DNA of 64,000 nt from Promethearchaeota archaeon (GCA_048940645.1 JBHLOI010000001.1:64001-128000); one strand, 5' to 3'. Positions 5,524 to 58,109 are shown, numbered from the stretch's first letter. The notes: generated by a model not told the origin, from the letters alone. Program-made: numbers and translations.

Positions 5524-5576
5524 GGATTTGTTGTATACTAACCTTAATTTAAATCATATTTTTTTAAATTATCGAT

Positions 5577-6578
5577 TCAAATATTTTGGATATCGAGATC
5601 ATAATAGCCATTTGGTAAACTAAACGATAGATTATAATTATTTAATGCTGGATAATCATTAGAGTTTAGCGTATAAATATCAATCCCATCAACAACAACT
5701 AAATCTGGCTCTTCAAACCCTACAATCTGAGTAAGTTGTTGTTGGAACTGGGCATCATTTGGGTTTGGACATAATATAAAATGAGCACCAACATCAACAT
5801 TACTATCTAAATAAGCCAATCTATAATTTCCAATGTGCGTCATAACTGTACCAGTTATATTTGCACCCATAGTTATATGTTGATTGATTTCAATAACAAT
5901 GTTTCCAATATCAGTAGTAAAAGTCCATAAATTATTTTTCATGTATTCCACATTATTCGTTTCTAATTTTATATTCCCTGTTTCTTGGACAATTCCCGTT
6001 ATTTCTCCTTCCAATATACAATTTGAAAAGTAAAAATTTATATTACCTTTCGTAACATTACTTAAAATATCCCCAATAGAATGGTAATATGGAACTGTTA
6101 TCTTAACATCTCCCTCAATATTAACAATTACACTAATATCACAAAAAACATCTGCTTTAAGAGTTACAGTAATTTTAACATTCTTTATTACTGATAATAC
6201 TCTAGCGTGGTCTATACTTGTTTTTAACTCCACCGTAAAATTTACAATACCGCTAGTATTTTGCCAAATAATATTAAAATAATCAAAATATGATTTTTCA
6301 GCTAAACCTGAACCAAGCATTTCAAGATTGAGTTCTACTCTTGCAGAATAATCAACTGGTTCATAAATATAGCCTATTTCAATATCTCCTATATCTGTAT
6401 TGATATTCAACTCTTTCATAAAAGAAGAATTACTAGGGTTATAGTAGAAGGGAATTGACTCTTCAATTTTACCATAAGGCGCGAGAGTAGTTGATATAAT
6501 AAAGATAGGAATAGAAATAATTAGACTCATACCGAAAATTAAAGTTATGCTAATTGCTAATGTAATTTTATTTGCCAT
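5577..6578 (-). CDS. Membrane-anchored beta-rich hypothetical protein (DUF4097/adhesin-like repeats)
   Basis: N-terminal TM, repeated 'T..GDI.I' beta-solenoid-like units; paralog of 8735..9736. Confidence 0.65.
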   Translation of the reverse strand: MANKITLAISITLIFGMSLIISIPIFIISTTLAPYGKIEESIPFYYNPSNSSFMKELNINTDIGDIEIGYIYEPVDYSARVELNLEMLGSGLAEKSYFDYFNIIWQNTSGIVNFTVELKTSIDHARVLSVIKNVKITVTLKADVFCDISVIVNIEGDVKITVPYYHSIGDILSNVTKGNINFYFSNCILEGEITGIVQETGNIKLETNNVEYMKNNLWTFTTDIGNIVIEINQHITMGANITGTVMTHIGNYRLAYLDSNVDVGAHFILCPNPNDAQFQQQLTQIVGFEEPDLVVVDGIDIYTLNSNDYPALNNYNLSFSLPNGYYDLDIQNI

Positions 6579-6760
6579 CGTTGAATTTCCATGAGTAAAA
6601 TTATAGATTCTTTAATTAATTATATATATGATAATCTTATTTAAACTATTTCTTAAATTCGCACGCAAATCTTAAAAAACAAGATAAATCAGCATTAAAA
6701 TTCAAATTTTCCGTTAAAAATAGATTACTTCAAAGTAGAATGAAACGAAACTGGTCTATT

Positions 6761-6786
6761 AATGATCAAAAACCTTAATTATGAAT
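6761..6786 (+). promoter_or_regulatory. Promoter block duplicated upstream of both SBP genes (copy 2)
   Basis: Identical to 3578-3603. Confidence 0.6.
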
Positions 6787-6815
6787 CTACCTAGTTATTA
6801 TTTTGCATCACTATA

Positions 6816-8636
6816 GTGAAATCTAAAAGGGTTTTAATAGGAGTAATCAAGATGTATTTTAAGATGAATTCAGAAAATAAAGCACCAAAGAAAAAATTAC
6901 CGAAAAAGAAAGGCCGATTATTAAGAGAAAAACCAATAGTAGTTTTTGGAATAGTTGCTGCTGTGGCCATAGCAGGGCTTATTGGTGGAATAACTATCTT
7001 TATAAGCATACCAGAGGAAAAAATACTATATATCTCATATAAAGATTTAGCTTTTCTTGATCCACATCAAACCTGGGTTCCTGATGATTACGAGATAATT
7101 AATCAAGTTACTGAAGGTTTGTTTGCTCATAACTCGACTAATGGACAGTCCCAAATTATCCATAACCTAGCTGTAAGTCATTCCTGGAATGTTAATGCGA
7201 CAGAACTAACATGCCAGTTAAGAAGATTTGTTCGATTCCATGATGGAACTCGTTTTGATGCTGAGGCCGTTCAGTGGAATATTGATAGAATATACACTTT
7301 AATTGATAACGGTAAAATGCATTTTGGAATAGCTCAATACTGGTTATTTTCCGATGGAATGCATATTATAAACAAAACTGAAATTATAGATTATCATAAA
7401 ATAAAGTTTATTTTAAACAAACCCTATATCCCTCTCACTGCATTATTAGCTTCTGCAATTTCATTTATAGTCTCGCCTACTTCTACTCCTAAAGATGATT
7501 TTATTGATAAATATACAGGAGCTTTAATTGGTACTGGTCCTTTTATGTTCAAAGTTTATAAAGAATTTCATAGTACAATATTCGCTTCTAATCCAAATTA
7601 TTGGGGTGGAATCCCAAAGTTTGATAAATTAATTTTCAAATTCTATGTAACCCCTGAAGATAAATTTGAAGCAATTTTGTCTGGAGAATTGTCAATGTTA
7701 AGTGGCTATAATGAATTAAATTCTCATGGCTTTTATTGGGATTCCTATGGAATTTATGATAATGATGTCTTAGATTCATTTATAAATCATCCTGATATAA
7801 TAGTAGAAGAAGGCCCACCAACGACCAATTTTGATTACCTTTTAATGAATAACGAATTGATTAATATAACTATGAGAAAAGCAATATCCTATGCCTGTAA
7901 TTATTCAGCTTACATAGAAAGGTGGCTAGATGGTCATGGAACGAGACTTAGATCTCCTATTCCAGATGGATTTTTATACTCTAATACAACAGATATTAAT
8001 ATTCCTTATTATAATATTTCATTAGCGCGACAAACGTTAAAGGATGTGAATTGGAATGGATTGGCCGGTGCTTTAACAGCTGATGATAACATTTCTGCAG
8101 GTAATGAATGGGAAAAATTAGTAGATGATGGAACACCTCTTGCTACATATAACTTTACATATCTATTAGGTATGCTAAATGGCATTGTTTTTTTTAATAT
8201 AACAAAAGAAAATCTTAAACAAATTGGAATAAAGATAGAAGCTGTTAAATTAACTCCTGGAGTATTTATGCAAATTTTTTGGGAAATACCACCTTATCAC
8301 TTGAATATGGTTGAACTTTCTCATATGGGATATATCACACGATTTAATGATCCTAGCAGTATTATTAACATTTTATGTTCAAATAAAGCATTAGATAATA
8401 ATTATTGTCAAGTTAATGACAATTCGACTCAGGACTTAATGGAACTTGCTATAGCAGAAACTAATGAAGTTGTAAGAGAACAATTATACTATCAAATTCA
8501 AAAGCGACTAATTGAAGAAATCTTCCCAATGTGTTATCTTTTCGTAAGAAATCATTTTAAAATTTACCGATCGAATTTAAATGGATTAGATGTTAACCAT
8601 TTTAATCCTGTATATAAAGATATTTATTTTATTTGA
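6816..8636 (+). CDS. Family 5 (OppA/DppA-like) solute-binding protein, paralog 2
   Basis: Same motifs as 3703..5523; by alignment the true start is probably ATG at 6864 (MNSENK). Confidence 0.9.
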   Translation: MKSKRVLIGVIKMYFKMNSENKAPKKKLPKKKGRLLREKPIVVFGIVAAVAIAGLIGGITIFISIPEEKILYISYKDLAFLDPHQTWVPDDYEIINQVTEGLFAHNSTNGQSQIIHNLAVSHSWNVNATELTCQLRRFVRFHDGTRFDAEAVQWNIDRIYTLIDNGKMHFGIAQYWLFSDGMHIINKTEIIDYHKIKFILNKPYIPLTALLASAISFIVSPTSTPKDDFIDKYTGALIGTGPFMFKVYKEFHSTIFASNPNYWGGIPKFDKLIFKFYVTPEDKFEAILSGELSMLSGYNELNSHGFYWDSYGIYDNDVLDSFINHPDIIVEEGPPTTNFDYLLMNNELINITMRKAISYACNYSAYIERWLDGHGTRLRSPIPDGFLYSNTTDINIPYYNISLARQTLKDVNWNGLAGALTADDNISAGNEWEKLVDDGTPLATYNFTYLLGMLNGIVFFNITKENLKQIGIKIEAVKLTPGVFMQIFWEIPPYHLNMVELSHMGYITRFNDPSSIINILCSNKALDNNYCQVNDNSTQDLMELAIAETNEVVREQLYYQIQKRLIEEIFPMCYLFVRNHFKIYRSNLNGLDVNHFNPVYKDIYFI

Positions 8637-8734
8637 TACATCAAATAGCTAATAATTAGATAAATTGTTAAAATTAGATAAATCATTAAAATTTTTATAC
8701 TTAAAAGTGTAATTAAATAAAATCAGAGACTTCT

Positions 8735-9736
8735 CTAAGTGTTGTGAAGCTCTAGCTCTTCAAATATTCCAAATGGAAAATTAAACAACCAATTATAATT
8801 ATATTGTGAAGGATAATCGTCGGAAGTTATATGATAAACATCTGTATTGTTTACAGGTAATACAATATATGCAAACCCTGTAATCTCCGTAATCTTTTGA
8901 TTGATAGCATAATCATCTGGATGTACATGTAATATGAAATATGCACCAACATCATCAGTATTGTCCCTATAAATAAATAGGTAATTACCAGTAATTGTTG
9001 TAATAATACCAGTTATATTAGCATTCGCAGCTTCATTTTGATCGATTTCAATAAGGATATCGCCAATATTAGCATAAAGAGACCACATGCTATTTTGGTA
9101 ATATTCTACATTATAGCTTTTTATTTTTATATCCCCTCTATCTTGGATAATTCCAGTAATATTTCCCTTTAAAATGCAATTAATAAAATCGTATTGAATC
9201 CCACCTTTAGTAACGCTACTTAATATATTCCCAATAGAGTGAAAAGATGGAACTGTTATCTTTACGTTTCCTTCAAGATTAACGAGAATATTAATATCAC
9301 ATAATACATCTGCTTTGAGAAATACACTTATGTTTACATTTTTTATTTGGGATAATACTTCAACATAGTTTATACCTGTTTTTAACTCCATGGTCAAGTT
9401 TACAAGACCACTTGTATTTTGCCATAAAATATTAAAATAGTCTAAATATGTTTTTCCAGCTAAACCTAAACCGAGCATCTCAATCTCTATTTCTACTTTC
9501 GCACAATAATCAACTGGTTCATTAATATATTTTATATCAATCTCCCCTACATCTGCATTGATATTCAAGCTTTCCATAAAAGAACTATTACCAGGGTTAT
9601 AATAGAATAGAATTGACTCATCAATAATGCCATAAGGTAAAAGAGTAGTTGAGATTATTAAAGCAGGTATCGAAATAATTAGAGCGATTCCGAAAACGAT
9701 AATTATAATAATTATTATTCCAGTTTTATTCGCCAT
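8735..9736 (-). CDS. Membrane-anchored beta-rich hypothetical protein, paralog 2
   Basis: Colinear with 5577..6578. Confidence 0.65.
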   Translation of the reverse strand: MANKTGIIIIIIIVFGIALIISIPALIISTTLLPYGIIDESILFYYNPGNSSFMESLNINADVGEIDIKYINEPVDYCAKVEIEIEMLGLGLAGKTYLDYFNILWQNTSGLVNLTMELKTGINYVEVLSQIKNVNISVFLKADVLCDINILVNLEGNVKITVPSFHSIGNILSSVTKGGIQYDFINCILKGNITGIIQDRGDIKIKSYNVEYYQNSMWSLYANIGDILIEIDQNEAANANITGIITTITGNYLFIYRDNTDDVGAYFILHVHPDDYAINQKITEITGFAYIVLPVNNTDVYHITSDDYPSQYNYNWLFNFPFGIFEELELHNT

Positions 9737-9887: not shown

Positions 9888-10931
9888 ATTCTTCTTCAAA
9901 TCTTTGATCCTTTAGAGCGTTTCTTTTCTAGTGGGGCAATAATTATACTAATTGTTAGTAGCCTATTCTATATATCCCAAGGTCGCAAAAAGGAAACTTC
10001 GCATGAAAAAACCTTAATGTACGGGTTTGCATGTTTTTGGCTTAGTATTGCGGTGGTACGCGCTTTTTTTTATTTTTCTGATTATATCTTAGAAGGAACT
10101 TATACGGGTGATTTAAACGTAATAATTCTATCTTTTGATATTACAAGTTATATTCTTCTTTACTTTTATTTATATTTATTCATATATATTTTCATTAGTA
10201 TAATCTCTGTAAATTTATTGTTTATTTGGTTTTCTATAAGATCAAAAAAAGAATTTCAAGCAATATCATCGGTGGTAACTATCGGTTTTACTGTAGTTTT
10301 AATAGGATGGGCGTTTGAAACAATAGCTATAAAAGAATTGAATCTAATTTCTCCAATACTACCCCCAATATTCGTGATAGTAGGCACTATAATCGCGATA
10401 TTACCATTAATTTTAAATCTTGAGTTTTTTTCCAAAGCTTTAGCTAATTGGCTCGTTCTAATCTCAATTATTTTTATCTTAGTATTTTTAGGTTTGACTG
10501 TGTTCACAAATTTGCCATTATTTATTATAAGTCAAGTAATCATTTGGATTTCAACCTTTGTTTTGGTTTTGGTGATTATCTATATAATTTCCTACTTAGT
10601 TAAGAGAGGTAGAGCTCCAGAAACTTCTTTGGAGGATAAAAAATCTGAAATCAAGGATTTTATAAGGATATTTACTAAACCTTTGGATTTTAGTATGAAA
10701 GAAATAAAATTTTATAGAGATAGAGGATTATGTTTGGTATGCAAAAACGAGGTTTCTGGTCTGACCTATGTTTGCCCTAATTGTGACGCATGGTATTGTA
10801 TTAAATGTTCTAAAGCTTTAACTGAGTTAGAAAACGTTTGTTGGGGATGTGGAAAACCAATTAATCTATTTAGACTCTTAAAGTATGAAAAAGAGCACAG
10901 TAAAGAAATTATTAAAGAAAAAGACAAGTAA
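9888..10931 (+). CDS. Multi-pass membrane protein with C-terminal Cys8 RING-like zinc finger; probable ATT start at 9888
   Basis: About 7 TM segments; CLVC..CPNC..CIKC..CWGC; frame is open 43 codons upstream of ATG 10017 and encodes an extra TM. Confidence 0.75.
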   Translation: MLLQIFDPLERFFSSGAIIILIVSSLFYISQGRKKETSHEKTLMYGFACFWLSIAVVRAFFYFSDYILEGTYTGDLNVIILSFDITSYILLYFYLYLFIYIFISIISVNLLFIWFSIRSKKEFQAISSVVTIGFTVVLIGWAFETIAIKELNLISPILPPIFVIVGTIIAILPLILNLEFFSKALANWLVLISIIFILVFLGLTVFTNLPLFIISQVIIWISTFVLVLVIIYIISYLVKRGRAPETSLEDKKSEIKDFIRIFTKPLDFSMKEIKFYRDRGLCLVCKNEVSGLTYVCPNCDAWYCIKCSKALTELENVCWGCGKPINLFRLLKYEKEHSKEIIKEKDK

Positions 10932-12946: not shown

Positions 12947-12983
12947 TTAGATTTAGCTTCGAAACTTTTCACAAAGTTCGAAT
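12947..12983 (-). promoter_or_regulatory. 37-bp conserved element, copy 2 (upstream of Ubl gene)
   Basis: Reverse complement of 1961-1997 with one mismatch. Confidence 0.7.
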
Positions 12984-14329
12984 TATATGTGGGGATACTT
13001 TTTTTTAAATTCATTTAAAATTGCATATTTCGGGAAATCTTTTAAAATTGGTGTTATAGGTCTTCTTACGGGTGTCAATTTCTGAAAATCATCCAAATCT
13101 AATTCTAATAAATTTTTTAAAGCTAATCCTTTGAATTTATCAGATATATCGTCCAAATGAGCGCTTTTTTGAAATTTTGAGTATAAAAAGCGAGTATATT
13201 CCTGTAAAAAGACTAAAATTGAAGATTTTATTTTTTTGTTAAATAACTTATTAGTAATATCACTTAAAATATTCTCAAGTAAATTTATAGTTTGTATTTT
13301 CTTCTGTTCATCGGGAATATCTGGTTCTAATTTATTTAGATAGCTAAATTTCTCAATATTCTCATCTATAATTAAATATAACATCTTCTCAAACTTTTCT
13401 CCTTCTCGAAAGTAATAGACACCATTTCCATCGACTGAAAATTTGAAGAATTTTGTTGAATATAAATCCTCTTCTACAATATTTTGCACAATATAGTTGA
13501 TTGTTCCTAGTTTTGTATCATATTTTTGAGAAAAATCTTCAGGTAATATACATTCTGGATATTTATTTGGATGATTTAATGACAAGAATAATAGAATTTT
13601 ATAAAAATCCTCCTCTGATGGAAGTAAACTTTCAATTTTAGAATAATTTAAATGATTAATTAAATCTAAAAATATTAATTTAGTCTCATCATCATCAATT
13701 TCATATTTTTCAAAGAAATTTTTTGCATTTTTCTTGATATCTTCGATTCTTTCTACCTCTTCTTCCAAAATTGTTTGATAATCTAAATGATAATTTTTTA
13801 ACATTTTAGAATATTGTAATTCTCCGGGTTTAGTAACTCGATATTCCATGTTTTCGCTTTCTACAAAGCCCTTTTTTATTAGAAGATTTAGATTTTTAGA
13901 TAGAGAATGATGATTAATTGAAAGAGGCTTTTCAAGGAAATCTGACCATTTACAAAAATCATTATTACACAACATCCAAAGAATAGTATGATTATAATTT
14001 CTTTTATTTAAAATTATTTCTGGAGGGTATCTTAACTTCCTTTCAAATGAATCCTTAAACCTCAAGTCGAAGTAGCGTTTTCTCCCTTCAGATGTTACTG
14101 TATAAACTCCCTTACTTTTCTTTTCAGCATATCCATTTGTAATTAATATATTCATATATTTTGATAATGTTGCTAAACTAATTTCTAATGGTTCTTCTAA
14201 GAAATTAGACCAATTGCACTCTTCATTATTATTTAGCATCCACAGAATAATATATTCAAAGTCTTTCTTTTCAACTCCCACGGGATTTATTATTTCTTGT
14301 GGAGGGTAATTTAATTCTTTATGAGAAAT
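12983..14329 (-). CDS. Tandem winged-helix (MarR/ArsR-like) DNA-binding protein; probable ATT start at 14329
   Basis: Two repeats of YPP..I...ILWML.NN..C.WS.FLE.PL.I....LSK....LI..G..E....Y.VT..G; the first repeat begins upstream of the GTG at 14281. Confidence 0.75.
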   Translation of the reverse strand: MSHKELNYPPQEIINPVGVEKKDFEYIILWMLNNNEECNWSNFLEEPLEISLATLSKYMNILITNGYAEKKSKGVYTVTSEGRKRYFDLRFKDSFERKLRYPPEIILNKRNYNHTILWMLCNNDFCKWSDFLEKPLSINHHSLSKNLNLLIKKGFVESENMEYRVTKPGELQYSKMLKNYHLDYQTILEEEVERIEDIKKNAKNFFEKYEIDDDETKLIFLDLINHLNYSKIESLLPSEEDFYKILLFLSLNHPNKYPECILPEDFSQKYDTKLGTINYIVQNIVEEDLYSTKFFKFSVDGNGVYYFREGEKFEKMLYLIIDENIEKFSYLNKLEPDIPDEQKKIQTINLLENILSDITNKLFNKKIKSSILVFLQEYTRFLYSKFQKSAHLDDISDKFKGLALKNLLELDLDDFQKLTPVRRPITPILKDFPKYAILNEFKKKYPHI

Positions 14330-21977: not shown

Positions 21978-22451
21978 ATGAAAGATAAATTTAATTTAGT
22001 GGGAACAAAAATAAAACCATTTAAATTACCAAACTCGAGAGGCGAAAGTAATAGCATTCAGGACTTTTTAGGTCATAGTGTAGTAATTGTTTTGTTCCGG
22101 AGTAAAAATTGACCCTATGCTAAAGCCCATGCAGGAAAACTCGGTGATGATTACGATAAATTCAAAGAATATAATGCAATATTATACACAATCTTACCAA
22201 ATGATCTTGAAAGTGCTAGGAATTTTGAAGCCAATTTTGCCAAAAAAAAATTTCCAATTTATTATGATGCCACAAAAAAGGTAAATAAAATGTTAAAACA
22301 GGAAGTAAAACCTTTAAAACTGGGTAGAATGCCAGCACTTCTCATAATCGACGAACAAGGGATTATTAGATATGCATATTACAGTGATTCGATGAGTGAT
22401 ATACCAGACAATGAGGAAATTTTTGAAGTTCTCAAAAGTTTTAGTAAATAA
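21978..22451 (+). CDS. Peroxiredoxin-like (AhpC/TSA, thioredoxin fold) protein with in-frame TGA at 22110-22112, probable selenocysteine
   Basis: Manual translation: MKDKFNLVGTKIKPFKLPNSRG...VVIVLFRSKN-U-PYAKAHAG...FPIYYD...MPALLIIDEQGIIRYAYYS...DIPDNEEI...*, 157 aa; the full-length ORF is absent from the ORF track. Confidence 0.8.
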
Positions 22452-38475: not shown

Positions 38476-39381
38476 TTAAAGTGAGTTTAGATTAAATTGA
38501 TGTAATGCTTTTTGAGCAACTATATCTCCCCACTCTTGCACAAAATGACCTGCTTCTTTCATTAGAAAAGGTTTTGGACAACCATGAATCACTTTCCTTA
38601 AATACTTCATTACAGGTAATCCTAAAACAGGATCTTGCATACCTACTACCATAAAAGTTTCTCCAGACCATTCATCTCTTAAATAAACTCTCGCTTCCCT
38701 TGAAATTTCAGCTCCAGGAGCATTAAAATTATCAGGTACTATATTTGGAAATCTGCGAATCCCTGCCTTATATTTGGTATCTGGAAAAGGAGCACGATAA
38801 GCTGCTTTTTCTTCATCTGTTAAATGAGGACATAGGCGTCCTAATAATCTACCTGGGTCCAAATCAGGATGATTATTGTTCCAATCTCTCCAAGCTATAA
38901 ATCCTTTTGACAATGGTATATCGCCTGTCGCTAGGGCAGTATTCATTAATACAAGTCTAATAAACTTTTTAGGCATCTCCATTGGTAATGTAAGGCCTAT
39001 AAGTCCACCCCAATCTTGACAAACTAACGTGATATTATCAAGATTTAATTTTTTTATGAATTCTAGTATGGAATTACGATGAAAATCGAAAGTGTATACT
39101 TCTTCATTTATTGGTTTATCAGATCTACCAAACCCATAGTAATCCGGAGCAATAACGCGAATTCCTACTTTAAGAAATATAGGAATCATTTTTCGATATA
39201 AATAACTCCAAGTTGGTTGACCATGTAAACATAAAAATATTTCATTAGAATCTTTTGGTCCAACATCAATATAATGTATTCTCAAATTATCATATCCCTT
39301 TAAATTTTCTAAATAATTAGGTTTATAAGGGAAATCAGGAAGTGTTTTAAACCTCTGTTCAGGAGTTCTAAGAAATTCCAG
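38476..39381 (-). CDS. Haloalkane dehalogenase (alpha/beta hydrolase); probable CTG start at 39381
   Basis: (M)EFLRTPEQRF.TLPDFPY, HGQPTWSYLYRKMIP, QDWGG, AGHFVQE. Confidence 0.9.
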   Translation of the reverse strand: MEFLRTPEQRFKTLPDFPYKPNYLENLKGYDNLRIHYIDVGPKDSNEIFLCLHGQPTWSYLYRKMIPIFLKVGIRVIAPDYYGFGRSDKPINEEVYTFDFHRNSILEFIKKLNLDNITLVCQDWGGLIGLTLPMEMPKKFIRLVLMNTALATGDIPLSKGFIAWRDWNNNHPDLDPGRLLGRLCPHLTDEEKAAYRAPFPDTKYKAGIRRFPNIVPDNFNAPGAEISREARVYLRDEWSGETFMVVGMQDPVLGLPVMKYLRKVIHGCPKPFLMKEAGHFVQEWGDIVAQKALHQFNLNSL

Positions 39382-43697: not shown

Positions 43698-44549
43698 CTA
43701 AGCAGCAACATATAGTCTGCCATTAGAACTTTTCGATATTTCTCCAGTTTTTTTATCAATTTTAGAATGATTTTTTGCAACAGAGTGATCACCACTATAT
43801 TCAATAAATTTTCCTGTAAGAGTTTCTCCATTTGGTAATTCTACTTCAGTTACTTCTCCGATCTTCTTATAGGAAGGAAGAATTTTCGTAACTTTGCCTT
43901 TAATTACGATTGCTCCCCTGACTTGGTCTGCTCCAGCACATCGATCGCAATCACCTTCAACAATAATAATGCCACCATGACTATGGATCCCTAAGAAAGC
44001 TCCAGCACTACCACAGATTAATTTTGGAAACCTTTTTCCGGGTTTAGAGCCATTTACCCATGCTAATGTTTCATTTCCTACTTTTCCTTTTACTTTTATT
44101 ATTCCATTTTTCATTCCCTGCCAAAAGCCTCTATATGCTGCTCCTACATAATGACCTGCATCTCCATTTATTTCTAATTCTCCTCCTTGAAGCATCGCTC
44201 CTGCCCAATCATCAGCATTTCCATTAACCGTTATTTTTCCACCCTTCATCTGGCTTCCAACATGCATTCCAACACTACCATTTATAACTATTTCGCCACC
44301 GCTCATATTCTCTCCGATGCGTTTTACGTTTGAGAAATCTCCATCAAGGATAATTTTAGTATCATTTTTATCAGTTGATTTTCCTGAAATATCAAAAAAA
44401 TTCCCTAATTTAACTACTTCTTTTCCATAATATAATTCTAATTTTTTAATGTCTGCTATAGTTTTACCAGCAAAATTGTCTGGGGTTATGATATCTGCTT
44501 CTAAGGGAAGTTCTGGTTTTTTCTTTAATTTTAATTTGATTTCTCCCAT
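43698..44549 (-). CDS. fwdC: Formylmethanofuran dehydrogenase subunit C
   Basis: PLEADIITPD, GXGXG beta-helix repeats, VGAAYRG.W.GM. Confidence 0.92.
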   Translation of the reverse strand: MGEIKLKLKKKPELPLEADIITPDNFAGKTIADIKKLELYYGKEVVKLGNFFDISGKSTDKNDTKIILDGDFSNVKRIGENMSGGEIVINGSVGMHVGSQMKGGKITVNGNADDWAGAMLQGGELEINGDAGHYVGAAYRGFWQGMKNGIIKVKGKVGNETLAWVNGSKPGKRFPKLICGSAGAFLGIHSHGGIIIVEGDCDRCAGADQVRGAIVIKGKVTKILPSYKKIGEVTEVELPNGETLTGKFIEYSGDHSVAKNHSKIDKKTGEISKSSNGRLYVAA

Positions 44550-44552
44550 AAT

Positions 44553-45881
44553 TTACTCACCAAGCTTTTCTTTTACTTTTTCAATTAGTTTTTCTAATAT
44601 TTCTTTGTCAGAGAGAGATTCACCTGGAGCATCTTTTACTTTTCTTAGTCTCAATGGAACTTTATCCATGCGATACGCTGTACCTTCACATTCTATTCCC
44701 GCAAACGCAGCAGGTAAAACTACATCTGCAAATGCGGAAGTAGGTGTTTCATGAGGGTCAATAGAAATCAAGGGATGTTTAAATAAGTTTTTTACTGCTG
44801 CTGCGGGGAAATTACTTGCGGGATCAGAAGCTACAATTAATGAAGAATCAACTTCATTTCTAATAAGTAAATCAACTGAGGAAAACTCTCCTGGATTATA
44901 TCGAGGATATCCCCTCGAAAAATCAATTGAATAAGCATATCCAGTATTCCACGTAAATACTTGATTTGCTCCAGTAACATTATAGTGCCCTCGCATTGGT
45001 TCTAATAGAAATTTTGTATGATCATTTAATTCTCTTGTCAAACAAATTGCTGCATCAATATTTCGGTGGTGAGCTAAAGTTTGTGTTAGTCCCATTCCGA
45101 AAAATATAACTCCAAAATTGCATAATTTCAACATTTCAACTAATTCTTTTACTTTTTCGATAGGGACTCCCGAAACTTCCTTTACATCTAATTCAACACC
45201 TCTAAGCACCGCTCTTATCGCATTTATTAATTCATAATCTTCATTAGGATTAACTTGAACAAATAGATCAGCAATTTGAGCAGTATGAGTATTCCTTGGA
45301 TCCACAACTATAATAAATCTGTCATTTCTTCCATCTTTTCTAAAATATCCCCTAACAAATTCACTATATCTCCCTAAATGCCTTGGATGGGCATGTACTG
45401 GATTGCACCCCCAGAAGATTACTAAATCAGCTCGATTCTTATACTCTCCTAGTGTAGACAAAGGAGCACCTACATCTTGTATTGCTAATAATGATGGACC
45501 ATGACAAACTGAGGCAGTATTATCTAAAATAGCCCCTAAAATTTCTGCTAATTCGACTCCTTTACTCTGTGCTTCACATTCAGTTGATGAAAATCCATAT
45601 AGTAGTGGTCGCTTTGCTTTTACTAAAATATCCGCTGCCACATCTAGCGCCTTATCCCATGATACTTCCTTATATTCTCCATTTACTTTTATTCTTGGTT
45701 TTAAATACCTGTGACCACCTGGATTTGAAGAGAAAAATTTTTTTGTACCAATTTGACAACCATTTCTAACTTCTATAACTGAATCTTCTTTAATATCGAT
45801 ATCTACTTCAAGATCGTCGCATAATGTCCCACAGAATGGGCAAACTACATCATAAACTGTTTTTATTTTTCTTTCTACCAT
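44553..45881 (-). CDS. fwdB: Formylmethanofuran dehydrogenase subunit B (Cys form)
   Basis: VCPFCGTLCDD, DNTASVCHGPS, KNRADL, HAHPRH, PMRGHYNV, GTAYRMD. Confidence 0.95.
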   Translation of the reverse strand: MVERKIKTVYDVVCPFCGTLCDDLEVDIDIKEDSVIEVRNGCQIGTKKFFSSNPGGHRYLKPRIKVNGEYKEVSWDKALDVAADILVKAKRPLLYGFSSTECEAQSKGVELAEILGAILDNTASVCHGPSLLAIQDVGAPLSTLGEYKNRADLVIFWGCNPVHAHPRHLGRYSEFVRGYFRKDGRNDRFIIVVDPRNTHTAQIADLFVQVNPNEDYELINAIRAVLRGVELDVKEVSGVPIEKVKELVEMLKLCNFGVIFFGMGLTQTLAHHRNIDAAICLTRELNDHTKFLLEPMRGHYNVTGANQVFTWNTGYAYSIDFSRGYPRYNPGEFSSVDLLIRNEVDSSLIVASDPASNFPAAAVKNLFKHPLISIDPHETPTSAFADVVLPAAFAGIECEGTAYRMDKVPLRLRKVKDAPGESLSDKEILEKLIEKVKEKLGE

Positions 45882-45884
45882 CTA

Positions 45885-46280
45885 TTATGCCTCTTGTAAT
45901 TGTTTCATTAATTCTAATGCATCTAACACCCTTCCACTTCTCATAACCTCAACTTTAGCCTTCATTCCCTTATAAGTGGGAGTTCCACACGCTTGAGAAT
46001 CAGGATTAACTAGCTGATTTGCCCAAGGACCCATTGGAATAAAAATTATACCTGGATGTGGACCTTCTTCCGAAATAGTTGAATAAACTACTACTTCACC
46101 ATGATCGGTAATAACCTTAACTGGAGTACCAACCAAACAATCTAATTTTTTAAAATCATCTTTATCAAAAGCACAAATGGCTGCAGCTCGAACATTCTCT
46201 TTTGTAGTTTTACCCCCTTCTAGAGCTACTCCTTGATTAATAGTCCTTCCAGTTAATAAAATTAAATTATTTAAGCTCAT
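45885..46280 (-). CDS. fwdD: Formylmethanofuran dehydrogenase subunit D
   Basis: TGRTINQG, IFIPMGPWAN, GTPTYKG. Confidence 0.92.
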   Translation of the reverse strand: MSLNNLILLTGRTINQGVALEGGKTTKENVRAAAICAFDKDDFKKLDCLVGTPVKVITDHGEVVVYSTISEEGPHPGIIFIPMGPWANQLVNPDSQACGTPTYKGMKAKVEVMRSGRVLDALELMKQLQEA

Positions 46281-47002
46281 TCTTCTTGCTCCTCTTTTTC
46301 ATTCCATCTTAAAGTCTTTAACCGTTCTAATAAAGGTTCCCAAAACATTTCGCTAAATTCCCCAGATGTTTTAACATCAGTAATTTTTAATTTTATTGCT
46401 CCCGTAGGACAACCATTGTCGCATGCACCACAAAATATGCAAGAATCTTTATCTACAACCACATTTGGGACAGTCTCCCATCCTTTATCCGACTTTTTCG
46501 GAACAGATATAGCTCCGGATGGACATACCTCATAGCAGGTTTGACACCCACCAGGACATTCTTCATCGACAATACTAATTTCTCCATCAGTGTATTGTTT
46601 AGCAACCCTTTCAATCTCATTATAACTAGTAATCTTCTTAGCTTCAAACTCTAATTTTGGGACAACATGCTCTTTTACTATTTGAATATCTTCTAACTCG
46701 ATAATATTTCCATCCTTTTTAAGAGTTAGAGCACTAAAAGGGCAAAAATATACACAAGTTCCACAAAATACACATTTTTCTGGATCATATACTTCTGGGA
46801 TAATATCTTCAAGTGTGGGAAATCTACGTGATGTTCCTACAGGTCCACGGGAAATAGCATCCTTCGGACACACTCTGGCACATGTTCCGCAACCAACACA
46901 TTTGGTTTTATCTAAAATTAGTTCTAAACTTTCAGTTAAGAATTGAATTTTTACATGTTCAATATCTTTACTTATTGATCTTGATATTTTTGGAAAAGAA
47001 AT
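46277..47002 (-). CDS. Polyferredoxin (FwdF/FwdG-like); probable ATT start at 47002
   Basis: Four Cys motifs incl. CVGCGTCARVCP (cut by the ORF-track GTG start), CVFCGTCVYFCP, CPGGCQTCYEVCP, CIFCGACDNGCP. Confidence 0.85.
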   Translation of the reverse strand: MSFPKISRSISKDIEHVKIQFLTESLELILDKTKCVGCGTCARVCPKDAISRGPVGTSRRFPTLEDIIPEVYDPEKCVFCGTCVYFCPFSALTLKKDGNIIELEDIQIVKEHVVPKLEFEAKKITSYNEIERVAKQYTDGEISIVDEECPGGCQTCYEVCPSGAISVPKKSDKGWETVPNVVVDKDSCIFCGACDNGCPTGAIKLKITDVKTSGEFSEMFWEPLLERLKTLRWNEKEEQEE

Positions 47003-47012
47003 TTTCTACACC

Positions 47013-47270
47013 TCATTCAACTTTTAGTAATTCTAATTTTATGGCATTTGCAGGACAAAATTTAACACAAACGCCACATCCATCACAGTTATAGGTTCTT
47101 TCACTTTTATAGATATCATAAGCCATCCCATTTTTGACTAAAATTACAGCATTTTCCTGAGTTAAATAGCCCATTTGTTTTAATTGATTAAAATTTATTG
47201 GACATGAAGTTACACAAATGTTACATCCTATACAGTCGTTATTATTTATTTTTAATCGATAAACTTGCAT
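47013..47270 (-). CDS. 2[4Fe-4S] ferredoxin (FwdG/FwdH-like)
   Basis: CIGCNICVTSCP, CDGCGVCVKFCP. Confidence 0.88.
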   Translation of the reverse strand: MQVYRLKINNNDCIGCNICVTSCPINFNQLKQMGYLTQENAVILVKNGMAYDIYKSERTYNCDGCGVCVKFCPANAIKLELLKVE

Positions 47271-53115: not shown

Positions 53116-53646
53116 TCATTCAATCAAAAAAATTGATATGATATTTTGAAAATAAATTCCAAATCCTATTAAGAAAGTTAGTAAATTTGCTGTAATAACC
53201 ATTGAAGTGGTCTTTTTTAACCCAGGGTATTCTAAATATCTAGTATTAAAATCTTTAAATAAGTGATTTATTAGAATACATTCTACAGTAATTGGTATTA
53301 TTTCTATTAAGAAATATATGATTAAAAAATAAAATAAAGTTATGAATGTAAGAGATGTGACCATAATTTGAGTAATGGGAAAAGTGAACAAATTAACAAT
53401 TAAAACCGTTTTATAAATTTTTGAATCATCAAATATTTTTCCCCTTAAAAAAAGATACACTACCAGAAATTCAGCATTAAATGTAAAGAAAAACATAAGT
53501 GGTAATTCAAAAAAAAAGTAATATAATATACCTTTAGTATCGTAAAGAGATTCTAATACAATGGGATTAGCCTTTACATTTGGGATACTAAAAATGAAAA
53601 AAATTAGTAATAACCATACTATTGATGTATTCCTAGATTTCATCAA
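53116..53646 (-). CDS. Signal peptide + multi-TM hypothetical protein
   Basis: VKA|NP cleavage-like motif; TFNAEFLVVY, N.FTFPITQ, EIIPI..EC, TANL.TF.IG. Confidence 0.75.
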   Translation of the reverse strand: MMKSRNTSIVWLLLIFFIFSIPNVKANPIVLESLYDTKGILYYFFFELPLMFFFTFNAEFLVVYLFLRGKIFDDSKIYKTVLIVNLFTFPITQIMVTSLTFITLFYFLIIYFLIEIIPITVECILINHLFKDFNTRYLEYPGLKKTTSMVITANLLTFLIGFGIYFQNIISIFLIE

Positions 53647-53701
53647 GAACTAAATGGATAAGTAAATTTAAATATCTTTGGGATAACAATTAATCACTTT
53701 C

Positions 53702-55489
53702 TCATGATTGTTCCCAGTAACAGGGATAAAAGTAGGCAAGATCCATTACGTTGCTTGGGAATCCCCGTAAATGCTTATCCCATGCATCATAATTCTTCTC
53801 AACATAAAGCCACGCATGGGGTCGAAGGTCCTCAACTAAATACCGTTGAATCTCATCATAGATCGCTTCTCTTGTAGGATCGGTTTCTGCAACGCCTTGT
53901 TCGAGTAAAGTTTGGAGATAGGGATCATTTACTTGTGCGGCATTATAGGTTGATATATTGGAGAATAAAGTATTGAGATAATTAGATGGATCATTTAAAT
54001 CAGGTATCCACCACCAATAGTATAATTGTAAGGCATCCCATCCGGCACTTTTTATCCTTAGATTGTATAATCTGTCTTTAAGATCATCCCACGGCATACC
54101 AGCATAACCAAGATAAATTCCAATGTGAGCTAAGTTATCTTCTAACGTAATAAATATTACATCACTGATGGTAACAGAACCTCCAACATTATAAGTTAAG
54201 TTTAAAGTTCGAAAATTTGCCGATTGCCATTGAGTTTCATGATTACCAGGGAAGGAGGGATCCCAACCTACACCAAACCCCATACTTTGCATTATTTCTC
54301 TTGCTTTAGTAATGTTGAATTTAGGATAATTAAATGACCAGTTGGCATATAATACCCCCTCTGGAATGGGAGATTTTAATCTAGTAGTCCTAACTGGGTT
54401 TATAGTATATGTAGCAAACTCATTTTTTTGTATACGATCAATTATAGAGCTATAATTGATAGCATAAGAGATTGCATTTCTCCAAGTTACATTAATCTGT
54501 TTGTTATTGAATCCTAAGTATTGGGTTATGGCTTTATATTCAGCTTCATATAAAAGTACTGCCCCCTCAGCTTCCATTGCGGGGAAGTAGGAGGCGAAAG
54601 GATCTGCTATAATATCTATGGCACCAGAAAGTACTGCCATATTTCTGGCTTCATCATCTTGGATTTTGACATGTACTAAGACATCAAAACCAATTCTTGG
54701 TCGATGGTAATCTTCAAATGCGGTGAATCTCACTTCATAAGCTTCAAGCTTTTGTATTACCATAGGACCAGTTCCAACACAGATACCTGTATCAACTAAA
54801 GCAGGATTAATATAATCTAGTTGTGGTGTAGATGTAGGAGACATGATAACTGATGCAGGGAATGCTAATAGAGCGCGAAAGGGACCATAGGGCTGACTTA
54901 AAGTAAACCTCACTTGCCTTGGAGTAATTGCTTCAACCTTTTGAATAATTGGAACTCCCTGGACATAATATAATGAATCGACAATAGTGGGGATGTTATA
55001 AAAACAGGTCTCAGGTAAAGGGCCCCAAGGATGAGGAGCTCCATTCCATGTAGTGTTCATCAAATAATGTAATCTCTGAAAACTCCATACAACAGTATCG
55101 GCATTAAAATCGGTGCCATCATGAAATTTTACCCCTTGTTTAAGGTTAAAGGTCAATTCTGTTCCTGTTGGATCGTAAGTACCCAAATCAGTTGCCAATA
55201 ATGGATAAAGGGCCATTTCAGGGTGACTCAAATTAAGTGCAAGCAACCCTTCCCACGTCATAATGATAGCATCAAAGGAAGCATCATCCCAGGCGTATTG
55301 AGGGTCGATATCCTTAGCTATATTCATGCTCCCAAAATAAATTCGGGAATAAGGAGGTGGTGGTGGATAAGGATAATATCGATATTGATAAAGATAAATA
55401 AATGGTAAAACATTAAAAACAATAATATTTAGAATAATTCCTATTGTAATCAAATTTTTTAATAAAGTATTTCCATCTTCTTCTCTCAT
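53702..55489 (-). CDS. Family 5 solute-binding protein
   Basis: IDP..AWD, LA, V.FHDGT.F.AD.V, GTGP, RNAISYAINY. Confidence 0.9.
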   Translation of the reverse strand: MREEDGNTLLKNLITIGIILNIIVFNVLPFIYLYQYRYYPYPPPPPYSRIYFGSMNIAKDIDPQYAWDDASFDAIIMTWEGLLALNLSHPEMALYPLLATDLGTYDPTGTELTFNLKQGVKFHDGTDFNADTVVWSFQRLHYLMNTTWNGAPHPWGPLPETCFYNIPTIVDSLYYVQGVPIIQKVEAITPRQVRFTLSQPYGPFRALLAFPASVIMSPTSTPQLDYINPALVDTGICVGTGPMVIQKLEAYEVRFTAFEDYHRPRIGFDVLVHVKIQDDEARNMAVLSGAIDIIADPFASYFPAMEAEGAVLLYEAEYKAITQYLGFNNKQINVTWRNAISYAINYSSIIDRIQKNEFATYTINPVRTTRLKSPIPEGVLYANWSFNYPKFNITKAREIMQSMGFGVGWDPSFPGNHETQWQSANFRTLNLTYNVGGSVTISDVIFITLEDNLAHIGIYLGYAGMPWDDLKDRLYNLRIKSAGWDALQLYYWWWIPDLNDPSNYLNTLFSNISTYNAAQVNDPYLQTLLEQGVAETDPTREAIYDEIQRYLVEDLRPHAWLYVEKNYDAWDKHLRGFPSNVMDLAYFYPCYWEQS

Positions 55490-55729
55490 AGCAGAGAACT
55501 TTTCTATACTTTTTTGTCTTAATATAATTGATAATAAGTAAACTTAAAAATCTTTCATCTCAAACTTGAAATGGCTCATAATATAAGACCAATTTTAATA
55601 ATTTTAATTTAATATTAGCATATAACAAATTTTATGAGCTTAGATTATAATTAGTACAATTCTTTTACTAAATAGGTAATTTCATTAAAATAAAATATTT
55701 TTCTTCCATCTATGAGATAGTAGCACTCA

Positions 55730-56266
55730 TCAAATCAAAATTTTTGATATAATGTTTGGAAAATAAACTCCAAACCCAATTAAGAAAGTTATTAGATTTG
55801 CTGTGATAACCATGGAGGTTGTTTTTTTTAATCCGGGGTATTCTACATATCTTTCATTGAAATTCATAAATAAATAATTTATAAGAAAACACTCTAAACT
55901 AATGGGTATAATTTCTATTAAGAAATAAATAATTAAAAAATAAAATGAAGTGACTAGTAGAAGAATTGAAGCAATAATTTGAGTAATGGGAAATGTAAAA
56001 AAATTTACTATAAAAATTAATTTATAAATTTTTGACTCATTAAGAATTTTTTTTTTCTTCAAAAAAATATAAACAACTAAAAATTCAGCATTGAATGTAA
56101 TGAAAAACATAAGCGGCATTTCAATAAAGAAGTAATATAGACCACTAACAGTATCAAATAGAGGTATCCTTTCTACTGGAATGGGATTAGCTTTTACATT
56201 TAATATATTAAAAATGAAAAAAATTAGAAATATCCATATAATTGATACATTCCTAGATTTCATCAA
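55730..56266 (-). CDS. Signal peptide + multi-TM hypothetical protein, paralog
   Basis: Colinear with 53116..53646. Confidence 0.75.
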   Translation of the reverse strand: MMKSRNVSIIWIFLIFFIFNILNVKANPIPVERIPLFDTVSGLYYFFIEMPLMFFITFNAEFLVVYIFLKKKKILNESKIYKLIFIVNFFTFPITQIIASILLLVTSFYFLIIYFLIEIIPISLECFLINYLFMNFNERYVEYPGLKKTTSMVITANLITFLIGFGVYFPNIISKILI

Positions 56267-56321
56267 GAACTAAATGGATAAGTAAATTTAAATATTTTTG
56301 GAAATAGAATTAACCATTTTC

Positions 56322-58109
56322 TTAAGAATAATCCCAGTAACAGGGATAAAAGTAGGCACGATCCATTGCGTTGCTTGGGAATCCCCGTAAATCCTTATCC
56401 CACACGTCATAATTTTTATAAACATAAAGCCACGCATGTGGTCTAAGTTCCTCAACTAAATACCGTTGAATCTCATCATAGATCGCTTCTCTTGTAGGAT
56501 CGGTTTCTGCCATGCCTTGCTCGAGTAACTTTTGGAGATAGGGATCATTTACCTGTGCGGAATTAAAGGTTGATGTATTGTAGAACATAGGATTGAGATA
56601 ATCAGATGGATCATTCAAATCCGGGATCCACGCCCTAGGGTATAATTGTAAGGCGTCCCATCCTGCACTTAATAATCTCTTATTGTATAATCTGTCCTTA
56701 AAATCATCCCATGCCATACCAGCATCACCAAGATATATTCCAATGTAATCTAAATTATCTTCTAATATATCAAATATTACATCCCAGTATGTAACAGAAC
56801 TTACGCTAAGAAATGTTAAGTTTAAAGTTCGGAAATTTGCTGATGTCCATTGAATTTCATTACTGCCAGGGAACGTAACATCCCATCCTACACCAAAACC
56901 CATACTTTGCATTATTTTTCTTGCTTTAGTAATATTAAACTCAGGATAATTAAATGACCAATTGGCATGAAGTACTCCTTCTGGAAGTGGTGATTTTAAT
57001 CGTGTAGTCTTAGGGGGGAATATCGAATATATATCAAATTTTTTATTATCAATTATAGAGCTATAATTGATTGCATAAGAAATTGCATTTCTCCAAGTGA
57101 TATTAATCTGTTTGTTATTAAATCCCAGATATTGGACAAGATCTTTATGACCAGCCTCAATTAAAGAGATTTCCGCCTCAGCTTCCATATCATCTAGATA
57201 TTTTGATGAGGGATCTACTATAATATCAACCGCACCAGAAAGGACTGCCATGTTTCTGGCATCACCATCAATGATTTTGGCATGTACTAAAATGTCAAGA
57301 TCTATTCTTGGTCGATGGTAATCTTCAAATGCGGTGAATCTTACCTCATAAGTTTCAAGTTTTAGTATTTCCATAGGACCAGTTCCAATACACGGTCCAT
57401 ATCCATAGGGACCTGAAACATCAACATTAGCTGGATTAATATAATCTAATTGTGGGGTAGAGGTAGGGGACATGATGACAGACCCTGTAAATGCTAATAA
57501 AGCGCGAAAAGGACCATAGGGCTGACTTAAAGTAAATTTTACTTGGGTTGGAGTAATGGCTTCAACATTTTGAATAATTGGATTACCTTCAATAAAATAT
57601 AACGGATTAATAATAGTAGCGATGTTATAATAGACTGTACTAGTTAGAAGGCCCCAAGGATGAGGAGCTCCATTCCAAGTAGTATTCATTAAATAATGTA
57701 ATCTCATAAAACTCCATACGACCGCATCGGCATCAAAATAGGTACCATCGTGGAATCTAACCCCTGATTTAAGATTAAAGGTCAATTCTGTTCCTGTCAC
57801 ATCGTAAGTACCCAAATCAGTTGCCAATAATGGATAAAGCGCCATTTCAGGGTGACTCCAGTTACTTGCAAGCAAACCCTCCCACACCATGATGATAGCA
57901 TCAAAAGAAGCAGAATCCCAGGCATATTGAGGGTCAATATCTTCAGATATATACATACTCCCAAATTTTAAAATTTGCATTCCACGCCCAGTTTCGATTT
58001 TATATTGAGAAAAGTAAACAATTGGTAATATTCCAAATAAAAAAATATTAAGAATAATTCCTATTCTAATAAAATTTTTTAATAAAGTATTTCCATCTTT
58101 TTCTCTCAT
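56322..58109 (-). CDS. Family 5 solute-binding protein, paralog
   Basis: Colinear with 53702..55489. Confidence 0.9.
   Translation of the reverse strand: MREKDGNTLLKNFIRIGIILNIFLFGILPIVYFSQYKIETGRGMQILKFGSMYISEDIDPQYAWDSASFDAIIMVWEGLLASNWSHPEMALYPLLATDLGTYDVTGTELTFNLKSGVRFHDGTYFDADAVVWSFMRLHYLMNTTWNGAPHPWGLLTSTVYYNIATIINPLYFIEGNPIIQNVEAITPTQVKFTLSQPYGPFRALLAFTGSVIMSPTSTPQLDYINPANVDVSGPYGYGPCIGTGPMEILKLETYEVRFTAFEDYHRPRIDLDILVHAKIIDGDARNMAVLSGAVDIIVDPSSKYLDDMEAEAEISLIEAGHKDLVQYLGFNNKQINITWRNAISYAINYSSIIDNKKFDIYSIFPPKTTRLKSPLPEGVLHANWSFNYPEFNITKARKIMQSMGFGVGWDVTFPGSNEIQWTSANFRTLNLTFLSVSSVTYWDVIFDILEDNLDYIGIYLGDAGMAWDDFKDRLYNKRLLSAGWDALQLYPRAWIPDLNDPSDYLNPMFYNTSTFNSAQVNDPYLQKLLEQGMAETDPTREAIYDEIQRYLVEELRPHAWLYVYKNYDVWDKDLRGFPSNAMDRAYFYPCYWDYS

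Follow-up and report, generated by a model that had tools for sequence, protein, structure and literature searches.

A Probable AUU Start Codon in a Short FwdF/FmdF-Type Polyferredoxin Gene and Signs of Recurrent Near-Cognate Initiation in a Lokiarchaeial Lineage

Introduction

Translation initiation at AUU is known from bacteria, where the Escherichia coli infC and pcnB genes start at AUU behind a Shine–Dalgarno (SD) sequence, and NCBI translation table 11 lists ATT, ATC, ATA, and CTG as initiators. Bacterial genomes hold a handful of AUU-start genes each, and the infC case is regulatory. In archaea, AUG, GUG, and UUG are regarded as the only codons that aIF1, aIF1A, and aIF2 accept in start selection.

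The archaeal factor aIF1 destabilises non-AUG complexes (PMC6237735), and, according to work cited there, the poor start context of the eIF1 gene itself leads to autoregulation in eukaryotic near-cognate initiation. Among Asgard archaea, a single "rare ATT start codon" has been reported, for AtubA in a Heimdall-group (Kariarchaeaceae) metagenome-assembled genome (MAG) (PMC13394414). A literature search found no systematic, genome-wide, or comparative account of Asgard ATT starts.

The present analysis concerns a window of 64,000 nucleotides, that is, the whole stretch of DNA analysed (G000:C11:64001-128000), from a MAG of 3.83 Mb in 126 contigs, 89.6% complete and with 29.8% GC, whose near relatives are labelled Promethearchaeota, i.e., Loki-type Asgard archaea. 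The window contains a polyferredoxin gene in which an ATT stands at the place of the canonical start codon.

Layout of the Polyferredoxin Gene and Its Start Site

The polyferredoxin gene (46277–47002, minus strand; 241 codons plus stop) encodes a short FwdF/FmdF-type protein with four [4Fe-4S] motifs and sits inside an fwdG-F-D-B-C operon, all of it on the minus strand. It is preceded by a gene for an 85-aa, FwdG-like 2x[4Fe-4S] ferredoxin (47013–47270), which has an ATG start, lies in another frame, and aligns over its full length with 5t5i_G and 9sfi_U. It is followed by a fwdD-like gene (45885–46280; NCBIfam FwdD, E 3.6e-33), which overlaps the polyferredoxin stop, and by the genes for formylmethanofuran dehydrogenase subunits B (44553–45881; TIGR03129, 611 bits) and C (43698–44549; TIGR03122, 252 bits), both over their cut-offs.

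Read 5' to 3' on the minus strand, the polyferredoxin frame is shut by an in-frame TAG (47008–47006), two codons before the proposed initiation codon, and continues with AAA and the ATT (47002–47000), from which it remains open to 46277. There is no ATG, GTG, or TTG over 43 codons from the ATT, and the first in-frame NTG is a GTG (46873–46871, minus strand) that encodes a Val within the first cluster motif, CVGCGTCARVCP (CX2CX2CX3CP; 46865–46900, minus strand), so that a start at this GTG would cost three of the four Cys of the motif. No SD was found before GTG 46873 in a scan of the window. Upstream of the ATT, at a distance of 6 nt, lies the SD GAGGTG (47009–47014, minus strand), which overlaps the TGA stop of the 85-aa ferredoxin gene (47015–47013), itself 10 nt 5' of the ATT. 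GAGGTG is complementary to the 16S 3' end of this genome, ...GGATCACCTCC, from which the SD was defined as GGAGGTGATC, with spacers counted from the G of GGTG, and its 6-nt spacer falls within the peak of 6–8 nt that ATG starts display over the whole genome. The preliminary description of this DNA had placed the TAG, the SD, the ATT, and the GTG with its loss of three ligands exactly as found here.

Identity of the Polyferredoxin

The NCBIfam FwdF model (NF042909) matches the polyferredoxin with 121 bits, under its cut-off of 375 bits. The best solved relative is 7bkb_K, FmdF of the Methanospirillum Fdh-Hdr-Fmd complex (E 4e-45), followed by 5t5i_F (FwdF; E 1e-37). Residues 4–100 correspond to 7bkb_K 5–100 and residues 138–240 to 7bkb_K 269–374. 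Compared with FwdF/FmdF (PDB 5T5I chain F, 7BKB chain K), the window protein shares the CX2CX2CX3CP clusters, the N-terminal FPK... segment, and operon neighbours of the fwdG, D, B, and C kind, but corresponds only to the outer ferredoxin domains of FmdF (388 aa), the first and the last, and lacks the middle two. Thus, four CX2CX2CX3CP-type motifs were counted instead of the eight clusters in four domains of FwdF/FmdF, whereas the homology, including the N-terminus, and the fwd operon context are both present. Judged from its sequence, the polyferredoxin is a short four-cluster FwdF/FmdF. 7bkb_K has four residues ahead of FPKYSK and the window protein, if read from the ATT, two ahead of FPKISR, so that a solved structure fixes the N-terminus of the polyferredoxin to within a few residues.

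A split or frameshifted FwdF was considered because the NCBIfam FwdF model hit the 85-aa ORF with its N-terminal part and the 242-aa ORF with its C-terminal part. This was rejected, since all of the approximately 120 listed relatives, from a search covering 133–424 aa, are separate genes for proteins of about 240 aa, and no single frameshift can lead from the upstream ORF into the polyferredoxin frame, as the stop of that ORF comes 5' of the TAG that shuts this frame.

Ortholog and Evolutionary Evidence for the Proposed ATT Start

Homologs were searched among proteins of 133–424 aa, and the listed relatives have 211–259 aa. Nearly all of these approximately 120 homologs (64–86% identity, about 240 aa) begin with MSFPKISR, and their Met1 lands on the window ATT, so that the alignment of orthologs, which had been put forward as a check on the proposed start, agrees with it. 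Among same-genus genomes, 19 have ATG (one GTG) where the window has ATT, and the four closest genomes all have ATT. Across 40 distinct gene copies, taken from same-genus genomes, metagenome contigs, and named species genomes, the start codon is ATT in 12, ATG in 27, and GTG in 1. The ATG orthologs have the layout TGAGGTG-N6-ATG, with the SD and the spacing matching those of the window ATT. The ATT is kept in 12 independent assemblies, which rules out a consensus error.

The sequence immediately 5' of the ATT varies among these copies. A TAG is found at codon -2 in the window, G019, L227, L228, and L232, and a TAA at the same position in L238; in L237 a TAA directly precedes the ATT; in G022 and G013 one extra A (5 A) shifts the frame 5' of the ATT; and in L031 the preceding codon is GAG. 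These variable stops, the indel, and the GAG indicate that the stretch before the ATT is not coding, whereas the SD and a spacing of 6–7 nt are preserved across the 12 ATT copies despite the differing upstream sequence. Five ATT copies have a possible canonical start, namely, an in-frame ATG over the upstream stop (G022, G013) or an in-frame GTG inside the SD (L031, L233, L235). Gene callers accordingly choose the GTG inside the SD in L031, giving MEKI..., and the ATG overlapping the upstream stop in G022 and G013, giving MRCRKI.... As the aligned copies are read here, the frame can be opened only by the ATT or, in some copies, by the AAA that precedes it.

This variation bears on the possibility that the real start is an ATG or GTG overlapping the upstream stop. 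In the copies with 4 A, the window included, tRNA-Lys would then slip by -1 on A-AAA to regain the frame, or an A would be missing through an assembly error. The two copies with 5 A do provide an in-frame ATG-AGG-TGT-AGA-AAA-ATT, and a -1 slip on AAA would yield the same peptide. Nevertheless, the 4-A state is found in at least six independent assemblies (the window, G019, L227, L228, and L232 with TAG, and L238 with TAA), the TAA of L237 abuts the ATT, and the upstream sequences of L233 and L235 differ. Moreover, the MRCRK extension occurs in no ATG ortholog, their ATG standing exactly at the ATT position with the same SD spacing; neither a heptameric slippery site nor a stimulator was found at the locus; and sister species would need a different mechanism. 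An upstream start of this kind is therefore highly improbable.

The codons that follow the ATT change in the same way as those further downstream, mostly synonymously and at third positions. Over codons 2–43, the differences among ATT copies are distributed 28:13:114 over the three codon positions, with 102 synonymous versus 27 non-synonymous changes, and over the remainder of the gene 204:71:765, with 658 versus 212, which indicates that protein constraint starts at the codon after the ATT. This constraint speaks against a lost start codon, by which the gene would be silent or decaying, or an N-truncated protein would be made from GTG 46873. No canonical start is present, as such a loss would have it, and model bacteria usually initiate poorly at ATT; however, purifying selection acts on the 42 N-terminal codons, and on the gene as a whole, in 12 lineages with ATT, GTG 46873 has no SD and would sacrifice three Cys of cluster 1, and the N-terminus matches that of solved FmdF. 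We give hardly any credence to a lost start.

Recoding was also weighed, either as read-through of TAG (pyrrolysine) from GTG 47011 or as read-through of TGA (selenocysteine) fusing the 85-aa ORF to the polyferredoxin. The genome does contain a tRNA-Sec gene, and a GTG directly precedes the TAG; against this, no PylD was found in the genome (25.8 bits versus a cut-off of 150 bits), TAG is common as a stop (344 TAG versus 309 TGA), the upstream ORF lies in another frame with an offset of 7 nt, read-through of its TGA meets a TAA after 14 codons, and the relatives show the indel and the TAA variants. The "tRNA-Pyl" reported by aragorn is probably a miscalled intron-containing tRNA, and the probability of recoding at this locus is practically negligible.

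The marks of a near-cognate, SD-led start are, thus, found together at this codon: no upstream NTG, the Met1 of orthologs on the codon, an SD spacing typical of the genome, conservation of the codon across species, and coding constraint after but not before it. It is very likely, from this comparative evidence, that the polyferredoxin is translated from AUU at 47002. In the gene tree, a single clade holds the 12 ATT copies together with 3 ATG copies, and no fewer than 3–4 switches between ATT and ATG are required; the ATT thus appears to be long-lived but toggling, and the repeated return to ATG suggests that it may be suboptimal.

The polyferredoxin genes of L226, L229, L235, and L241 are 77–91% identical to that of the window, and the genomes that contain them carry conflicting phylum labels (Odinarchaeota, Hodarchaeota, and Promethearchaeota).

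Three Further Sites in the Window

A scan of the window for near-cognate codons that have an SD and precede the first NTG by 10 codons or more returned exactly four sites, 9888, 14329, 39381, and 47002, among 57 ORFs. The three sites other than the polyferredoxin had also been named in the preliminary description, and each of them passes comparison with its orthologs.

The first is an ATT (9888–9890, plus strand), the probable start of a membrane protein gene that runs to 10931. The ATT occurs in five genomes, in each of which an in-frame TGA lies three codons upstream within GGTGAT, and conservation extends over the 43 codons ahead of the first NTG, with FDPLERF and a membrane helix. An ATC at 9900 is an alternative start, since distant orthologs have ATG there. 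The exact codon is therefore uncertain; ATT 9888 is favoured over ATC 9900 by the SD spacing, and a canonical start is absent either way.

The second is an ATT (14327–14329, minus strand), the probable start of a 448-aa gene ending at 12983. This codon is ATT in four genomes (G000, G046, G019, and G022) and ATC in two (G018 and G010), and in all six it is preceded by GGTG at a distance of 10 nt; a conserved NYPP motif precedes the first NTG, and the Met of paralogs lies two residues further in. This 448-aa gene (12983–14329) is a short form of a large paralog family with 2–8 copies per genome, the other members having mostly 630–1010 aa and an N-terminal NYPPxE segment in common.

The third is a CTG (39379–39381, minus strand) at the Met1 position of a haloalkane-dehalogenase-like hydrolase gene running to 38476, with a TGA two codons upstream. 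The window genome alone has CTG at this codon, where G046 has GTG, G019 has TTG, and more distant orthologs have ATG.

These sites help to weigh translational coupling, according to which ribosomes that end at the upstream TGA would simply reinitiate at the nearest near-cognate codon, with no relaxation across the lineage. The layout of the polyferredoxin gene would suit such a mechanism, as its SD overlaps the upstream stop (TGAGGTG), the gap to the ATT is 10 nt, and the gene is internal to the fwdG-F-D-B-C operon. However, the ATG orthologs share the same layout, and the genome-wide enrichment described below follows the SD and not upstream stops. Moreover, 9888 and 39381 each open the first gene after a divergent neighbour, and 14329 lies approximately 195 nt past the previous gene; none of the three is operon-internal and, therefore, coupling is not required. 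Coupling may aid the polyferredoxin gene, but is not the general reason, and as the sole explanation it is unlikely.

Other features of the window were noted in passing. An open frame of 112 codons (22113–22448, plus strand) reaches its first NTG only after 59 codons, and neither an SD nor a near-cognate candidate was found in it; it may be no gene at all. A tandem two-gene unit is present twice at 3703–9736, with 606-aa ORFs on the plus strand (3703–5523 and 6816–8636) and 333-aa ORFs on the minus strand (5577–6578 and 8735–9736). A second tandem duplication (53116–58109, minus strand) comprises 176/178-aa and 595-aa ORFs, 53116–53646 with 53702–55489 and 55730–56266 with 56322–58109.

Probable Near-Cognate Starts across the Genome

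The genome set comprised 3251 stop-to-stop ORFs, none of them nested and each with 100 codons or more. In 86 of them, at least 40 codons precede any NTG, against approximately 16 expected from base composition (29.8% GC). This difference, together with the same ATT in twelve assemblies, excludes chance. A 5-mer SD lies 5–10 nt before ATT, ATA, ATC, ACG, or CTG in 32 of these 86 NTG-poor ORFs, mostly at most five codons from the upstream stop.

When in-frame codons at or before the first NTG were counted at a spacer of 6–8 nt from a 5-mer SD, ATG was found 148 times, TTG 47, ATT 34, ATA 24, GTG 16, and ATC 10, whereas a control spacer of 15–17 nt gave ATG 12, ATT 11, and ATA 4. A correctly spaced SD accompanies 83 of 3067 near-cognates versus 133 of 13578 other codons (odds ratio 2.8, p 5e-12). 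A looser test used a 4-mer SD and was confined to codons that lie no more than 12 codons from the stop and precede the first NTG by 10 codons or more. AUH codons (ATT, ATA, and ATC) had an SD in 95 of 799 cases, against 95 of 1358 for the composition-matched permuted codons that served as reference (p 1.5e-4); CTG and ACG had one in 14 of 49 (p 8e-6 versus permuted codons), and AAG and AGG, with 13 of 148, were not enriched.

A conservative estimate puts the excess at about 50 genes, at least 1.5% of ORFs, leaving out starts closely trailed by an NTG and starts with no clear SD. Extrapolation from the tail of NTG-less ORFs would give about 360 genes, or about 10%, as a loose upper bound, frameshifted fragments giving the same tail. 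The frequent non-canonical initiation proposed in the preliminary description is in line with this SD-spaced enrichment of AUH, CUG, and ACG, which does not extend to AAG/AGG or to composition-matched codons; its figure of about 4 of 55 genes starting at ATT or CTG stands as regards the window cases, but is a local rate, 4 of 57 in the window being above the genome-wide floor of at least 1.5%. Recurrent near-cognate initiation in the lineage is, on these counts, supported.

The ratio of AUH to NTG codons at SD spacers of 6–8 nt was also compared across Asgard genomes, in 400-kb samples except for the window genome, which was taken whole. It was 68:211 in the window genome and 7:26 in G032 (GC 31%), a member of the same order but of a different family, versus 4:43, 3:50, and 4:53 in G058, G084, and G047, from other Asgard families. 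The first two differ from the three outgroups with p 2e-6, and the outgroups lie near their own permuted-codon background. The habit, therefore, looks strong in the order of the window genome and weak or absent elsewhere, as judged from small samples of differing GC.

aIF1 and Initiator tRNA

The aIF1 (SUI1) gene of the window genome (G000:C43:35930-36271, minus strand) has no ATG, GTG, or TTG for 43 codons, and an ATT stands at the expected N-terminus, ahead of the CPxC knuckle, in eight of the nine genomes of its family (family f1) examined (loci L136–L144). In most other Asgard families, the aIF1 start is ATG. Eight columns that hardly vary among 21 other Asgard aIF1s are altered in the f1 aIF1, for example, with F for the G of TVIEG and S for the C of CACGG. 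We infer that weakened discrimination through a/eIF1 may be the cause of the near-cognate starts. The aIF1 start codon does not cleanly explain the habit across the order, since codons are mixed within it, a TTG being possible in G032, an ATA likely in G030, and ATG present in G038 and G027.

An infC-type autoregulatory AUU was considered for the polyferredoxin gene and set aside, its product being an Fe-S electron carrier and not an initiation factor; such autoregulation could apply to the f1-family aIF1. Outside the family of the window genome, the aIF1 loci L157 (G053) and L159 (G115) are also without a canonical start, with an ATA behind AGGAGG in G053 and, in G115, a CTG where its relative G051 has GTG.

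An initiator tRNA was not found in the 89.6%-complete MAG by aragorn with and without introns, by an Rfam tRNA scan, or with an initiator anticodon-stem pattern. The only Met tRNA in these scans is an elongator-type tRNA-Met(CAT), among approximately 30 tRNAs in all, many of them with long introns. An unusual initiator tRNA could, alternatively, account for the starts. Both aragorn and Rfam report a tRNA-Sec (TCA) gene (G000:C101:14409-14501, plus strand), by which the MAG probably encodes selenoproteins.

Proposed Mechanism and Significance

At the polyferredoxin gene, the 30S subunit would be placed by the strong GAGGTG 6 nt upstream, as at the ATG orthologs, the initiator tRNA would presumably pair with AUU through a third-position mismatch, and initiation would be adequately efficient. 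The product would be the full-length, 241-residue short FwdF/FmdF, which retains its first Fe-S cluster. The mechanism would not be gene-specific: AUU, AUA, and AUC, and more rarely CUG and ACG, would serve as starts behind good SDs in at least about 1.5% of genes in the Lokiarchaeial genus of the window genome, and probably in its order. Under AT pressure (29.8% GC), ATG may mutate to ATT or ATA, be tolerated, and toggle back.

A broader proposal is offered tentatively, as one that we regard as nearly, though not quite, an even prospect. It holds that third-position discrimination is relaxed in Lokiarchaeial archaea, at least in the family of the window genome and probably in its order; that 2–10% of their proteins, including aIF1, start at AUU, AUA, or AUC; that Asgard proteomes are, as a result, N-terminally truncated; and that aIF1, as the factor that sets stringency, may control its own synthesis through its AUU start.

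For annotation, callers of the Prodigal/PGAP type, which accept only ATG, GTG, and TTG, cut 43 residues and one Fe-S cluster from the polyferredoxin, and in relatives they choose spurious upstream starts, such as those giving MEKI... and MRCRKI.... Each Lokiarchaeial genome would be expected to have dozens of genes miscalled in the same way, among them genes for proteins on which studies of eukaryogenesis draw, and, if the proposal is true, Asgard eukaryotic signature proteins would also be systematically truncated at the N-terminus. This would then be the first archaeal lineage known with routine near-cognate starts, and one that adjoins the eukaryotic stem. A lineage that routinely accepts AUH would be a natural system for the study of the factor residues that set start-codon stringency.

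Comparison with Known Systems

The proposed starts resemble the AUU starts of bacteria in having a codon with a third-position mismatch, a strong SD at normal spacing, and, presumably, an initiator tRNA, and in being missed by gene callers. They differ in number, with at least about 50 genes in the window genome, and in the host, which is an archaeon with eukaryote-type aIF1, aIF1A, and aIF2; moreover, ordinary metabolic genes are among the cases, and nothing points to a regulation particular to single genes. AtubA is similar in that its deposited N-terminus is too short and an upstream ATT, with a ribosome-binding site at a plausible distance, restores the fold, but it is a single gene whose start was called rare (PMC13394414). 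With the eukaryotic eIF1 system, finally, the lineage shares an aIF1 gene that is itself, in family f1, without a canonical start, whereas it uses placement by the SD instead of scanning and prefers AUH, as in bacteria, and not CUG or GUG.
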